From a virus (lineage: Duplodnaviria; Caudoviricetes): 64,000 nucleotides of DNA. Made by a program: the position numbers and the translations under genes. The stretch lies in IMG/VR virus record IMGVR_UViG_2880505610_000001, positions 32,001 to 96,000 of that record; one strand, written 5' to 3'. Shown in pieces: positions 3,918 to 47,071 of the stretch. How positions within the stretch are numbered: the stretch's first letter is position 1; every line of letters starts with the position of its first letter. The notes beneath the pieces are model-generated. The model saw only the letters and a program-made list of their open reading frames with translations. It had not been told where the DNA came from and made no database searches.

Positions 3918-3980
3918 CAGCTCCAGGCGCCGCTATTTCGACGTGCGATCTTGGAATCGGCGCGCTAGCTTGTTGATCAG

Positions 3981-4061
3981 CACCTCTCCCGAAGTGCTGG
4001 GCGACGGTTCCTTCCTTCGCATGGCAGAACAACCGCCGCCCGATCTGTTGTCGGGAGGGTC
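3981..4061 (+). ncRNA. Short Y RNA (no tRNA domain, YrlB-like)
   Basis: Terminal stem 3982-3992/4051-4060 with bulge; CCCGAAGTG / GTTGTCGGG motif shared with downstream Y RNA; upper stem 3998-4009/4031-4042; pyrimidine-rich loop. Confidence 0.75.
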
Positions 4062-4063
4062 GA

Positions 4064-4234
4064 CAACTTCAGACGAGCGGGTGCCCGAAGTGCAGGCAAC
4101 GGTTTCTTCCACTGGTTAATGGAGAGGTCGCAGGTTCGAATCCTGTCACCGGGCCTTGCCGGGTGTAGCTCAGTTGGCAGAGCACTTACGTCACCGTCGC
4201 CGACCTCGTTGTCGGGCACCCCTCGCTGAAGTTG
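4064..4234 (+). ncRNA. yrlA: YrlA-type Y RNA with circularly permuted tRNA-like domain
   Basis: Ends pair (4064-4088/4212-4234); T arm GCAGG-TTCGAAT-CCTGT 4130-4146 precedes loop-closed acceptor-like stem 4147-4165 and D arm GCTC-AGTTGGCA-GAGC 4168-4183; directly upstream of TROVE gene. Confidence 0.9.
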
Positions 4235-4266
4235 AACCCCTCCCCCAGCTCATCTGGGGTCGCAGG

Positions 4267-5892
4267 ATGGCGAAGTTCAACAAGGCCGGTGCCCGCACCG
4301 CCGTATCTACTCCGGTCAAGACCGAGACTGTCGCGTCAGGCCGCACCCATGAGGGCGCTCCCGGTTACGGGCGGGACATCAAGTCGGAACTGTTCCTGCT
4401 CGGTATCTCGAACATGGTCGGCGAGGACACCTTTTATGAGAAGGGTCAGCAGCGGGACCAGAGGTTCGCCGACCTTGTTGTCGCCGCCGGCCGGGAGGAC
4501 CCGGAGTGGACCGCGGGGTTCCTCCGCTGGCTCCGCTCCGAGGGCAACATGCGGTCCGCGCCGCTCGTGGCCGCGGCCGAGCTCGTCCGCGCGAAGCCGG
4601 AGGGCATGCGGACCCGCAAGGTGGTGGACTCGGTGCTGCAGCGTGCCGATGAGCCCAGCGAGATCCTCGCGTACTGGCTGAGCCGGTATGGCAAGCCGAT
4701 CCCGATCGCGCTCAAGCGCGGTGTCGCGGACGCGGTCGTCCGTCTCTACGACGAGCGGTCACTGCTGAAGTACGACTCGGCGGACCGCGCGGTCCGGTTC
4801 GGGGACGTCGTGGACCTGACGCAGCCCGCCTACCACCGGTCGGAGATCCGGGGGACGTGGCGGTACGACCTGCTCGGCCACGCCCTAGACCGCAGGCACG
4901 GCCGCGACAAGCCGCTGCCTGAGAGCCTTCGGCTGCTGCGCGCCCGGGCTTTGCTGATGGCGCTGCCGGTGGGTGAGCGCCGGTCCGTCCTGTCGGACCC
5001 GGCCCGGCTCAAGGCGGCGGGGATGACGTGGGAGGCGCTGGCCGGCTGGCTGCAGGGGCCGATGGACGCCGCGGCGTGGGAGGCCATCATCCCCTCAATG
5101 GGGTACATGGCGCTCCTCCGGAACCTGAGGAACTTCGACGAGGCCGGCGTGTCCGACGAGGCCGCCGAGCGGGTCGCGTCCCGGCTGGCCGACCCGGAGC
5201 ACGTGGCCAGGTCGAGGCAGCTGCCGATGCGGTTCCTGTCGGCGTACCGTGCGGCGCCGTCGCTGCGGTGGGCGCACCCGCTCGACAAGGCCCTGACCGC
5301 GTCCATCGGCAACGTCCCGTCGCTGCGTGGGCGGACGCTGGTCCTGGTGGACACCAGCTCGAGCATGGACGCCGGGTTCTCCAAGGACGGCACGCTCATG
5401 CGGTGGGACGCCGCGGCGCTGTTCGGTGTGGCGTTGGCGCAGCGGTGCGAGTCCGCCGACGTGGTGTCGTTCTCGTCCACGGCCCGGTACTGGGCTGACC
5501 CCGCCGCCGGTGCTCGGACGAAGGTGTTCCCGCTCAAGCGCGGGGAGTCGCTACTGCGGTCGCTGGACCGGTGGAAGGGTGACGGGTTCTTCCTCGGCGG
5601 CGGCACCGAGACCGCCAGCGCGGTGCGCAAGCACCTGGCCGGGCACGACCGGGTGGTGATCCTGACCGACGAGCAGGCGTCGGGTGGCGACGTCGATGCG
5701 GTGGTGCCGGAGCGGACCCCACTGGTGACGTTCAACCTGGCGGGGTATCAGCGTGGCCACGCACCCTCGGGGACGGGCCTGCGGGTGACGATCGGGGGCC
5801 TGTCGGATGCGGGGTTCCGTGTTCTGCCGTTGCTGGAGGCCGGAAGGTCCGCGGACTGGCCATGGGCTATGGAGCGCTATGGAGGGCTGTAG
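4267..5892 (+). CDS. rsr: Ro60/Rsr TROVE-domain RNA-binding protein with C-terminal vWA
   Basis: MAKFN start; RTHEGAPGY, MTWEALAGW, MGYMALLRNLRNF, SRQLPMRFLSAY, MIDAS LVDTSSSM, GGT, ILTDEQ. Confidence 0.95.
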   Translation: MAKFNKAGARTAVSTPVKTETVASGRTHEGAPGYGRDIKSELFLLGISNMVGEDTFYEKGQQRDQRFADLVVAAGREDPEWTAGFLRWLRSEGNMRSAPLVAAAELVRAKPEGMRTRKVVDSVLQRADEPSEILAYWLSRYGKPIPIALKRGVADAVVRLYDERSLLKYDSADRAVRFGDVVDLTQPAYHRSEIRGTWRYDLLGHALDRRHGRDKPLPESLRLLRARALLMALPVGERRSVLSDPARLKAAGMTWEALAGWLQGPMDAAAWEAIIPSMGYMALLRNLRNFDEAGVSDEAAERVASRLADPEHVARSRQLPMRFLSAYRAAPSLRWAHPLDKALTASIGNVPSLRGRTLVLVDTSSSMDAGFSKDGTLMRWDAAALFGVALAQRCESADVVSFSSTARYWADPAAGARTKVFPLKRGESLLRSLDRWKGDGFFLGGGTETASAVRKHLAGHDRVVILTDEQASGGDVDAVVPERTPLVTFNLAGYQRGHAPSGTGLRVTIGGLSDAGFRVLPLLEAGRSADWPWAMERYGGL

Positions 5893-31856: not shown

Positions 31857-32507
31857 TCAGCGGCCCTTGCTCTTCAGCAGCCGCGAATTGACGAACCCCG
31901 CGAACTCGTCCGCGGGGTCCTTGGCTCTGGTCTGGTTGGCGCCCGATGCCTGCGTCCGGTCCGGCGCCGGGCGGCGCCGCTCCGGTTCGGCAGGCTTGAG
32001 CTTGCCGAGATGCGGTTTGCGCTCGAGCAGGTCTGCGAGGTCGGCCTTGATCGCGTCCGCGTCGATGTCACCGACGTCGGTCACGTAGGCGTTCAGGTCC
32101 AGGTGCGCCTCGGGGTCGGTCGGGTCCGCGAACGCGGCAGCCGCCAGGGCTCGCACCTCGCTCTTGACCGCCCGCTTCCGCAGCGCGCCGATCTCCCTCT
32201 CCCGCTCGTCCAGCCGGGCCTGGAGCCGTTCGGCCTCCGTCTTCTGCGCGTCCTCGAGCTCCTTGGCTTTGGCCGCGAGCGGCTCGAGGTCCTTCAGGCG
32301 CTTGCGGAGGTTCGCGGCCTCCTGGTTGGCCTTGTGGATCTTCGCCTTGTACTGGGCCTCGTTGAACGGCTGCTCGGCCGGCGGGCCCTCCTGGGGCTTG
32401 GTGGCCGTGGTCTCATCGCCGTTGTCGGTGGCCTCGTCCTGCTTCTCCACCGCGCCCTCGTCGGCGCTGGTGGGCTCGGTGCTGTTCTCGGCAGCCTCAT
32501 CGGGCAT
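31857..32507 (-). CDS. Scaffolding protein
   Basis: Acidic N-terminus, coiled coil, KTEAER, KPHL; upstream of capsid gene. Confidence 0.85.
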   Translation of the reverse strand: MPDEAAENSTEPTSADEGAVEKQDEATDNGDETTATKPQEGPPAEQPFNEAQYKAKIHKANQEAANLRKRLKDLEPLAAKAKELEDAQKTEAERLQARLDEREREIGALRKRAVKSEVRALAAAAFADPTDPEAHLDLNAYVTDVGDIDADAIKADLADLLERKPHLGKLKPAEPERRRPAPDRTQASGANQTRAKDPADEFAGFVNSRLLKSKGR

Positions 32508-45057: not shown

Positions 45058-45234
45058 TCAGCCCGCCACCTCGATTCGCTTGATGCTCGACCGCCACGTC
45101 GCGGTCATCTTCACGGTGGTGTCGCCAGGGATCTCCTGCCTCATGGCTTCCTGGACGAACTGGGCAAGCTCGTCCAATGTCATTCCGTACTTGAGGTCGG
45201 CGGCTTCGGCGCGGACCGTCTTCTCAGTGATCAC
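45058..45234 (-). CDS. Small hypothetical protein
   Basis: GTGA coupling with ligase; GMTLDELAQFV. Confidence 0.6.
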   Translation of the reverse strand: MITEKTVRAEAADLKYGMTLDELAQFVQEAMRQEIPGDTTVKMTATWRSSIKRIEVAG

Positions 45235-46310
45235 GCGACATCCTCCGAGACAGTGATCGGGCGGTCTTCGCCGGAAGGGCGGAGGGTCTGCCAGATCTTC
45301 GGGGCGGGATCCTTGCCATCGAGCAGGAGGAACAACGACGCCTTGTGCTCGGACTTCACGGCGAGCGCGGCGTAGTCCTTCCGGGTCCAGCCGACGGGGA
45401 GCTGGTTCAGGATGCGCTTGTGTTCGGCCTCGGCCGCGGCGATCCGGCTGTGCAGCTCGACCCCGAGCCGGTCGTTGAGGTCTCTCACCCAGGCGTGGAA
45501 TTCGTCGGGCAGCGGTTCGCAGATGTCGGCGACGGTCTGGCCGTCGCCAAGTGCTTCCCAGACAGCGCGGGCGTTGAGGCCGGTGACGATGCGGTGGAGC
45601 CGGACGTAGTCCTCCTGCTTGATCTTCACCATGGTGCCGGTGTCGACGAGCCGTACCACGACGCCCTCGGCGCCCGGGCGCGATGGCAGCGTGAGCGCCT
45701 CGCCGATGGTGCTGGCGGGGAAGGTCTCGGCTCGGGGGCCTTGCCAGTTCGGGACGTGGTCGGGGCCGAGGGGTGTGCCGGTGGCGGTGTGGACGGCGCC
45801 GAGCAGGATGAGGTCGTCGGTGTCGCCGTAGTCGCACACGATGCGGTTGGCGGGGTAGACAATCTCGACCAGGACGGTGACGCCGTCCGGTGGCCGGAAG
45901 CCGGCGTAGCGGTCGCGCAGGATGCGGGTGGCGTGCTCGGCCTGGGTGGAGGTGAACGAGCCGCGTGTGGCGATCGCCCAGTCGTCGCCGTGCGGGTAGA
46001 GGGTGCCGAGACTCCCGTCGATCTTGTCGATGGTTTCGGCTTTGGCGTCGAGGTCGAGCGTGCCGCAGGCGGGTTCGCCGTAGTTGAAGAACTTGCGCCA
46101 GGGCCTGGCGATGATGTGGCCGTCGTGGTGGGTGATGAGGCCCCGGCAGTTGAGGGTGACGTTGGTCCAGGCGCGTTCGTACTGACAGCGCTCGGTGTAG
46201 TTCAGGATCCGGAGCGGCAGCGTCGGGTGCTGTTGTTCGCGGACGTGGCCTTCGGCGATTGCGGTGTTGAGTGCGGTGATGTCGAACAGGTCGCTGATGT
46301 GGGGGATCAC
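45231..46310 (-). CDS. RNA ligase, T4 Rnl1 (RnlA) family
   Basis: ILNYT, CRGLI, KFFN, motif I KIDGS, ATRGSF, EGVVV, KIK..Y..LH. Confidence 0.92.
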   Translation of the reverse strand: MIPHISDLFDITALNTAIAEGHVREQQHPTLPLRILNYTERCQYERAWTNVTLNCRGLITHHDGHIIARPWRKFFNYGEPACGTLDLDAKAETIDKIDGSLGTLYPHGDDWAIATRGSFTSTQAEHATRILRDRYAGFRPPDGVTVLVEIVYPANRIVCDYGDTDDLILLGAVHTATGTPLGPDHVPNWQGPRAETFPASTIGEALTLPSRPGAEGVVVRLVDTGTMVKIKQEDYVRLHRIVTGLNARAVWEALGDGQTVADICEPLPDEFHAWVRDLNDRLGVELHSRIAAAEAEHKRILNQLPVGWTRKDYAALAVKSEHKASLFLLLDGKDPAPKIWQTLRPSGEDRPITVSEDVA

Positions 46311-47071
46311 GGCGTCTCCTCGGTGGTCTGCGCGCCGCGTGCGACCGGACGGGCGTCGAGAGCGCTCAGGATGTGGCAGGCGGGGCAGCCGCCGACCGGG
46401 CTGGGATGGGCGACGCGGTGGATCGTCTCCGCCTCCCGGACGCGCTCCAGGACGGCCGCGCCCTGGTCAACGGCCGCGCGGAACTCGCTGTCGTCGACCC
46501 GGATGGCCACGGTGACCTCGCCCGGCTCGTCGAGGGCGGCGAGGACGTCATCGGCTGGCACGGAGGCGGGCCAGGGTGCGCCGCCGAACTGGCGGGAGAG
46601 CGACCGGTCCTGGGGGTCCTTGGCAGCCTGAGCGAGCGCCCGCACCCGCTCGACGGTGGCCTCGGCTTGCTCGCCGCGCTTCTGCCAGCGGGCGCGTGCG
46701 GCTTCGGCGGCCTCGGCGCGTTCGCGCAGCGCGGTGTACGCCTGCTCGGCGTTGCGGAGCTGGTCCTCGGCCTGCTCGGCGCGCTTCTCTCTGGCCTCCG
46801 CCACCTCGTGCCAGTCCTGGGCGTTCTGCCGTGCGGACTTCGCATCGGCCTCGGCTTCCTCCAGGCGTGCGGCGAGGGTGTCGGCGCGCTCGGTGGCGTC
46901 GACCTGGGCGGCGAGGAGGGCTGGCTCGACGACGGCCATTGCGACGGTGGCCTGATGCGTGTGCCACTCGGTGGTGGCGGGATTCCACTCGCCGCATGAG
47001 CACTCGTTCCCGGTGTCGCCGACCGGGTAGTGGGCTTCGAGGCTGACGGTGATCCGGTTGTGCAGGCTCAT
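46307..47071 (-). CDS. Coiled-coil hypothetical protein
   Basis: RAEQAE repeats, CSC and CPAC. Confidence 0.7.
   Translation of the reverse strand: MSLHNRITVSLEAHYPVGDTGNECSCGEWNPATTEWHTHQATVAMAVVEPALLAAQVDATERADTLAARLEEAEADAKSARQNAQDWHEVAEAREKRAEQAEDQLRNAEQAYTALRERAEAAEAARARWQKRGEQAEATVERVRALAQAAKDPQDRSLSRQFGGAPWPASVPADDVLAALDEPGEVTVAIRVDDSEFRAAVDQGAAVLERVREAETIHRVAHPSPVGGCPACHILSALDARPVARGAQTTEETP

Follow-up and report, generated by a model that had tools for sequence, protein, structure and literature searches.

A likely prophage-carried Ro60 module with two predicted Y RNAs, one short and one of the YrlA type, in an Actinomadura-like chromosome

Among the Y RNAs associated with bacterial Ro60 (Rsr) proteins, the YrlA class is defined by the reversed order of its tRNA halves (Chen 2014, PMC4201824), and its listed members come from 254 bacterial species, actinobacteria among them, and from 22 phages, among which are mycobacteriophages (PMC4201824). 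The occurrence of YrlA plus a shorter second Y RNA beside rsr has been documented in Mycobacterium smegmatis and Salmonella, and in M. smegmatis, a single precursor is cleaved to yield the two RNAs (YrlA and YrlB), both of which co-precipitate with Rsr (PMC4201824). The presumed Ro60 site is a stem shared by these RNAs, with CGAA at the boundary between the stem and an internal loop (PMC4201824, PMC12135203). In addition, the crystal structure of Salmonella YrlA shows the L-shape of a tRNA (bioRxiv 10.1101/312249, PDB 6CU1), and the Ro60 of phage phiLo, which has Yrl1 and Yrl2 upstream, was characterized in 2025 by biochemistry and cryo-electron microscopy, including a complex with PNPase (PMC12135203). 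Here, we analyzed a locus of this kind within a 64,000-nt stretch of a tailed-phage record (IMGVR_UViG_2880505610_000001, positions 32,001 to 96,000; hereafter, the window).

The locus consists of two predicted Y RNAs (units 1 and 2) and a Ro60 gene, and we consider it likely that it represents a prophage-carried Ro60/Y RNA ribonucleoprotein module of a known bacterial type. On the + strand, unit 1 comes first, unit 2 follows after a single base, and the ATG of the Ro60 gene stands 32 nt beyond the end of unit 2. The original prediction, made from the sequence alone, had placed a TROVE-vWA gene ~30 nt after the second RNA, and this agrees with the position of the ATG as well as with the Pfam TROVE and phrog_850 matches described below. 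The features of the locus, in window coordinates, are as follows.

3943 to 3971, + strand: promoter-like element, with a −35-like (G)TGCGA(T) at 3943-3949 and a −10 TAGCTT at 3966-3971, proposed from comparison of related loci
3981 to 4062, + strand: Y RNA unit 1, short and YrlB-like, an 82-nt stem-loop predicted by folding and by covariance model R1
4064 to 4234, + strand: Y RNA unit 2, YrlA-type, with an outer stem, a Ro-binding-type internal loop, and a permuted tRNA-like domain
4107 to 4129, + strand: anticodon-arm-like hairpin and linker (5-bp stem, 8-nt loop CUGGUUAA, 5-nt linker AGGUC)
4130 to 4146, + strand: T arm, GCAGG-UUCGAAU-CCUGU, aligned to YrlA and tRNA models
4147 to 4165, + strand: loop-closed acceptor-like stem of 8 pairs, including one G-G mismatch, with a 3-nt loop
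4166 to 4184, + strand: U8-A9 equivalent, D arm GCUC-AGUUGGCA-GAGC (to 4183), and position-26 equivalent, from model alignment and covariation
4267 to 5892, + strand: Ro60/Rsr gene, 541 aa, TROVE ring and vWA domain, from Pfam, PHROGs, and PDB matches

Unit 1 is predicted to form a long stem with an internal loop that bears CCCGAAGUGC and a small pyrimidine-rich apical hairpin. In DNA letters, this motif of the 5′ strand reads CCCGAAGTGC and occupies 3988-3997, and the 3′ strand carries GTTGTCGGG (GUUGUCGGG as RNA) close to the 3′ end. Unit 2 repeats the stem of unit 1, with GCCCGAAGTGCAGGC at 4083-4097 and GTTGTCGGGC at 4208-4217, and in both units, CCCGAAG is found where the stem meets the internal loop. 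The short unit, then, adjoins both a YrlA-type unit and rsr and has the same Ro-binding-type stem. Two tandem stem-loop RNAs with a common stem of this type had been proposed originally; the sequence indeed reads as described, and the proposal gains further support from the covariation and covariance models presented below. The fold energy of unit 1 is −36 kcal/mol, with a modest z score of −2.2 (4 of 200 shuffles were as stable). We also noted a possible alternative pairing, in which GGGAGGG of the 3′ strand of unit 1 (4054-4060) would pair with CCCUCCC at 4239-4245.

In unit 2, a T arm and a D arm are separated by the loop-closed acceptor-like stem, and the unit lies on the same strand as the Ro60 ortholog and within 4 kb of it. 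The hairpin 5′ of the T arm (4107-4124) reads TTCCA / CTGGTTAA / TGGAG in DNA letters and is followed by a variable-loop-like linker, AGGTC, at 4125-4129. The nucleotides that form tertiary contacts in tRNA are present in this unit as U8, A14, G15, G18-G19, C48, and the UUCGAAU loop, and its fold has a z score of −4.8 (0 of 200 shuffles were as stable). A relaxed Rfam search aligned 4123-4186 with positions 24-84 of the YrlA model RF02553 (32.6 bits, E value 2.6e-5), and when the two halves of unit 2 were rejoined in tRNA order at positions 26/27, ARAGORN reported a tRNA-?(ggtt) with a full cloverleaf. These two results agree with the permuted domain of the original prediction (i.e., an anticodon-like hairpin, a T arm, a closed acceptor stem, and a D arm), and as judged from its sequence and predicted structure, unit 2 is a YrlA-type Y RNA. 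It had also been anticipated that annotation programs would miss both RNAs; indeed, ARAGORN called no tRNAs in the window as it stands, and Rfam at its gathering thresholds returned no matches there. Derivation of the tRNA-like domain from the host tRNA-Asn was considered and rejected, as its similarity to various host tRNAs is confined to the generic D-arm and T-arm segments.

The core of unit 2 has matches in other phages. In Xanthomonas and Xylella phages, these fall in unannotated DNA ~110 bp upstream of Ro60-like genes and are probably YrlA RNAs that have escaped annotation. A further match is to a feature annotated as tRNA-Thr in the Mycobacterium prophage prophiGD43A-5. Since ARAGORN, which proved a lenient caller, assigns 36 of 150 YrlA-type units to tRNAs even without rejoining, Y RNAs may be among the annotated phage "tRNAs."

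The protein encoded at 4267-5892 has the domain order of Ro60, i.e., TROVE (the HEAT-repeat ring) followed by vWA with a MIDAS site. Pfam TROVE was matched with 62.6 bits (cut-off, 23), the MIDAS motif DTSSS is intact, and the later vWA motifs GGGTE and TDEQ are present. In PHROGs, the protein matched phrog_850 ("RNA-binding protein") over its full length with an E value of 5e-57. The sole PDB match obtained by sequence was 9KOP/9L5Y (E value 3e-26; best-matching stretch, residues 24-202), which is the Ro60 of Thermus phage phiLo (PMC12135203).

Covariance models R1 (short unit) and R2 (YrlA-type unit) were built from the window and four related loci. The closest Ro60 loci are those of a Jiangellaceae metagenome-assembled genome (MAG; L033, 84% protein identity), Spirillospora (L034, 82-83%), and a MAG contig (L036, 61-65%), and all three have both units in identical order and one base apart. 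R1 scored 92 bits in the window and 80-85 bits at the same place in these loci; the short unit is thus conserved in homologous loci, a point on which the original prediction had let its case depend. R2 scored 155.6 bits in the window and 160-168 bits in the other three. Among 146 distinct YrlA-type units, 93% of the pair cells hold standard pairs and 42 of the 48 pairs are doubly changed, with none of 500 shuffles as good and with slid controls falling to ~40% paired. More specifically, the T arm is paired in 99% of its cells, all 8 pairs of the acceptor-like stem covary (95% of cells paired), and all six pairs of the hairpin 5′ of the T arm are doubly changed; the stem of the short unit covaries likewise. 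The + strand is favored by the many conserved G-U pairs and by the very low scores on the opposite strand. In our view, this comparative evidence is decisive in arguing for real RNAs, and it is stronger than the fold energies.

Nearly all matches to R1 and R2 lie upstream of Ro60 and on its strand (93 actinobacterial genome loci and 55 IMG/VR loci). After merging of the matches, we counted 1-6 tandem units in the genome loci and up to 7 in the viral loci, with two units being the most frequent number in both sets (40 of 93 and 21 of 55 loci, respectively). The unit farthest upstream is short (<100 nt) in 42 of the 81 multi-unit genome loci and in 35 of the 48 viral ones. Judging from these counts and orders, the arrangement found in the window is the commonest form of a very common architecture. 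At the Ro-site motif, most other actinobacterial units read CCCGGUGCG. The Ro site of the four-locus phage clade is GCCCGAAGUGCAGGC, as opposed to the GCCCGGUGCGCAGGC common in host loci, and this hints at matched protein-RNA pairs between the phage Ro60 and its own Y RNAs, which we regard as a lead.

Among the described systems, M. smegmatis resembles the window in its actinobacterial host, in the presence of two Y RNAs directly 5′ of rsr on its strand, and in the YrlA order of T arm, closed acceptor stem, and D arm. There, too, the RNAs lay hidden under a mis-called start of an open reading frame (ORF), and in the window, the Ro60 frame reaches upstream to a TTG at 4156, i.e., into the YrlA unit. 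The M. smegmatis order, however, is YrlA, YrlB, rsr, and its YrlB has a T arm, whereas in the window, the short unit comes first and lacks a T arm; moreover, the window copy is on a prophage, unlike the M. smegmatis rsr locus. Because the acceptor-like stem of the window YrlA contains a G-G mismatch, processing at that stem is uncertain in comparison with M. smegmatis. The phiLo system shares with the window a phage Ro60, two upstream Y RNA-like RNAs, and the CGAA motif at a bulged stem, but its protein is distant, and PMC12135203 makes no mention of YrlA or "tRNA-like."

The rsr-yrlBA-rtcBA operon of Salmonella Typhimurium likewise combines a YrlA tRNA mimic with a shorter YrlB and has a link to RNA repair; the window prophage also carries an Rnl1-type ligase. 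In Salmonella YrlA, the Ro-proximal stem replaces the anticodon stem, whereas the window unit has a separate anticodon-arm-like hairpin 5′ of the T arm, and the Salmonella operon is controlled by RtcR and sigma-54, whereas the putative window promoter is ordinary and actinobacterial-looking. Deinococcus radiodurans also has several Y RNAs upstream of rsr, and its Rsr/Yrn1/Yrn2/PNPase complex (RYPER) is the working model for a Y RNA that tethers Ro60 to an exonuclease. Its Y RNAs, unlike those of the window, form a separate lineage with another orientation of the tRNA-like parts (Chen 2014, PMC4201824).

Alignment of the window with L033, L034, and L036 revealed TGCG(A/T) and TA(G/C)NNT at constant spacing with a diverged spacer between them, which points to a putative promoter just 5′ of unit 1 with a predicted start at ~3978-3981. 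A generic sigma-70 promoter scan detected no promoter at the locus, and a terminator scan detected none between the Y RNAs and rsr. We also noted a hairpin, CCCCAG-CUCAU-CUGGGG, at 4243-4259, just 5′ of the Ro60 start; L033 and L034 retain it, and it may occlude the Ro60 ribosome-binding region. The conserved −35 and −10 hexamers, the 32-nt gap between unit 2 and the ATG, and the lack of a detectable terminator suggest that transcription from just 5′ of 3981 would yield a single transcript in which the short Y RNA is followed by the YrlA-type Y RNA and then by the rsr mRNA.

By analogy with YrlA and YrlB of M. smegmatis, both RNAs would be excised from this transcript, and given the conserved CGAA-type motif, each would bind the Ro60 ring through the common bulged stem, with CCCGAAG on its 5′ strand. 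The YrlA unit may then mimic the L-shape of a tRNA and in this way recruit a tRNA-binding factor, and the short unit may be a gate or provide a tether to a nuclease (e.g., PNPase), a role known from D. radiodurans and phage phiLo. Recruitment through tRNA mimicry and gate or tether roles are established properties of Rsr/Y RNA systems. The host has a core rsr locus with four Y RNAs, and with such a module, the phage would add an RNA surveillance or decay particle of its own, with a distinct Ro site. The original prediction had suggested a tRNA decoy against anticodon nucleases plus a tether for another factor, and these roles are hypothetical.

The phage-borne nature of the locus, which the original prediction had asserted, holds in the sense of a prophage, as the window contains a complete set of genes for virion structure, lysis, and replication. 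The module is placed between the tyrosine integrase and the endolysin genes.

1264 to 2313, + strand: tyrosine integrase, likely prophage end, followed by EndoVII-domain and XRE genes and a 90-aa ORF (to 3917)
13370 to 37380, − strand: late genes, i.e., endolysin, minor tail proteins, tape measure, major tail, major head, protease, portal, and large terminase (PHROGs E values 1e-13 to 1e-143)

The minus strand at 13-64 kb also encodes DnaB, a replication initiator, two DNA methyltransferases, and the T4 Rnl1-type RNA ligase, and together with the integrase, the structural, lysis, and replication genes form one co-linear block of the kind found in temperate siphovirus-type prophages. A first reading, based on the 16 kb upstream without virion genes, had put the locus outside any phage; it was reversed by the PHROGs matches at 13-64 kb of the window. 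The window is situated at 4.33 Mb of a 9.0-Mb single-contig chromosome with a GC content of 72.7%, which is Actinomadura-like and probably belongs to the genus Actinomadura, given that the A. madurae locus L103 coincides with G008, a genome of the same genus. The module and the prophage have a GC content of 64-69%, and low GC extends from about −33 kb to about +73 kb around the window. No relative with >62% identity was found in 36 genomes of the same genus.

An integrase gene is also found upstream of the module in L034 and L036, and an XRE-DUF5753 gene downstream of it in L033, L034, and L036, as here. Furthermore, the genomes of L034 and L036 have a portal gene ~27 kb downstream on the opposite strand, as in the window, with portals that are just 29-30% identical to the window portal. 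The Spirillospora genome has a second Ro60 gene, which is of the host type. Based on its position, its GC content, and this synteny in two other genomes, we place the module inside the prophage and conclude that it is probably cargo of temperate phages.

Several neighboring or related sequences were examined alongside the module. The core rsr locus of the host (G000:C1:3278443-3280640; L005:1493-2040, minus strand) encodes a Ro60 that is 58% identical to the window copy and comprises four tandem units, namely a short one, one of the YrlA type, a middle-sized one with a T arm only, and a further YrlA. The unit nearest the gene scored 56.3 bits against the Rfam YrlA model, likewise below threshold, and the four-unit pattern recurs elsewhere in the genus, including A. 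madurae (L103). The L036 contig (CAZYSQ010000001.1) is labeled as an uncultured Acholeplasmataceae MAG, yet it has 67% GC and genes of actinobacterial type, namely XRE-DUF5753 and a Ro60 module with the same Ro-site motif as unit 1, and it is probably mis-binned actinobacterial or prophage DNA. Approximately 2-10 kb before position 1 of the window (L008:201-8060), we found co-oriented genes with a weak FtsK/SpoIIIE-like match (709 aa), a MazG-like pyrophosphatase, a Nudix hydrolase, and several ORFs without matches; this region resembles a conjugative element or additional accessory DNA of the phage. Within the window, the Rnl1-type ligase gene (45231-46307, minus strand) matched Pfam RNA_lig_T4_1 (40 bits) and phrog_562 (E value 3e-69), and the 253-aa ORF beside it (46307-47068) gave no kinase or phosphatase match.

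Several observations weigh against a prophage-carried Ro60/Y RNA module. The VWA_2 match, at 20.4 bits, is under the Pfam cut-off of 27. The YrlA match is far below the Rfam gathering score of 69 and covers the tRNA-like core only, so the search with the YrlA model that had been proposed as a check recovered the core but did not reach the threshold; the outer part of RF02553 is ill-fitting to these actinobacterial stems. The published motif GNCGAAN0-1G is matched in its CGAA core only, with the leading G-N unmatched, and unit 1 is not kept in the minimum-energy fold of the whole leader. Moreover, the search for prophage borders yielded neither att repeats longer than expected by chance nor a tRNA gene nearby, and four of five related proviruses lack Ro60, with the fifth resembling the host-type four-unit locus. 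This fifth provirus, G062, was set aside as a test of phage carriage, since its four-unit array and 61% identity look like those of a host core locus enclosed by loose provirus borders.

The missing att sites and the proviruses without Ro60 would suit a separate integrase-linked island, or host DNA beside the prophage, in place of phage cargo. The conjugative-element-like character of the 16 kb upstream (weak FtsK/TraB-like, Nudix, and pyrophosphatase matches) and the identity of the Ro60, which is 60-65% to cellular actinobacterial Ro60 vs 38-48% to the Ro60 of isolated phages, point the same way. Such an origin is nevertheless unlikely, given the location of the module between integrase and endolysin, its prophage-like GC content, and the recurrence of integrase-Y-Y-Ro60 at a similar distance from a portal in two other genomes despite the divergence of the portals. 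It is likewise unlikely, and slightly more so, that the structures are only a cis-acting rsr leader (e.g., an autoregulatory Ro60-binding 5′ untranslated region) that is never released as trans-acting Y RNAs. The units do lie directly between the putative promoter and the ATG with no terminator found, and the conserved hairpin at 4243-4259 overlaps the likely ribosome-binding region, but the same layout in M. smegmatis gives processed, Rsr-bound YrlA and YrlB (PMC4201824), and the tRNA-like tertiary-contact nucleotides are conserved over ~250 units, which argues for a factor-binding RNA rather than a leader alone. Finally, the cloverleaf that ARAGORN accepts upon rejoining at 26/27 might be taken to mean that unit 2 is a circularly permuted tRNA gene processed to a working tRNA. 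We consider this highly improbable, as there are 8 nt in the anticodon-like loop, the acceptor-like stem lacks CCA, contains a G-G mismatch, and is closed by a 3-nt loop, both ends of the unit are held in a long Ro-type stem that covaries, and the "anticodon" triplet varies freely among relatives.

With the locus read as a Ro60/Y RNA module, the hairpin 5′ of the T arm deserves attention of its own. In YrlA-type units from ~150 loci, the loop of this hairpin has a modal length of 7 nt and the form C-U-NNN-A-A, with C32, U33, A37, and A38 conserved around a variable triplet and with a linker of 4-5 nt after it, as in class I tRNA. The commonest loop is CUGUUAA, and this 7-nt loop is also present in the closest relatives of the window, whose own unit is atypical in its 8-nt loop. 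After rejoining at 26/27, ARAGORN called 99 of 150 units tRNAs with many different "anticodons," a number to be read in light of the leniency noted above. The same hairpin was described by Chen 2014 as a poorly conserved "V" stem-loop (PMC4201824), the Salmonella structure paper presents YrlA without an anticodon loop (bioRxiv 10.1101/312249), and we found no description of a family-wide anticodon-loop signature in the YrlA literature cited here. We treat this signature as a lead and not as a finding, since the hairpin may stack in the manner of an anticodon arm or, equally compatible with the sequence, stick out like a long variable arm.

A broader reading would join these leads. The "V" stem-loop would be a true anticodon-arm mimic (5-bp stem, 7-nt loop), and the actinobacterial and actinophage YrlA RNAs, including that of the window, would be complete tRNAs permuted at 26/27 and grafted onto the Ro-binding stem. 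They could then be read by anticodon-loop enzymes or nucleases and might act as a decoy or sensor in tRNA-cleavage conflicts beside the Rnl1-type ligase, with the phage Ro60 paired with its own Y RNAs via CCCGAAGUGC as opposed to the host CCCGGUGCGC. Taken as a whole, this reading is speculative, and we consider it doubtful.

The novelty implied by the original prediction did not hold up, since the YrlA architecture, YrlA/YrlB pairs, and a phage Ro60 with two Y RNAs have all been published and two is the commonest number of units. The locus adds no new kind of element, and its novelty is low. Its value for annotation is that standard callers miss both RNAs and that the Ro60 frame can be wrongly extended over the YrlA unit. 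More broadly, Ro60 genes of actinobacteria and actinophages are as a rule preceded by tandem arrays of 2-7 Y RNAs, and the Rnl1-type ligase, Ro60, and Y RNAs make up a small RNA repair and surveillance gene set on one prophage. Temperate phages provide hosts that possess a Ro60/Y RNA set with a second, phage-encoded one, and a lysogen in which the host and phage sets differ at the Ro site would offer a convenient system for studying the function of phage Ro60 particles.

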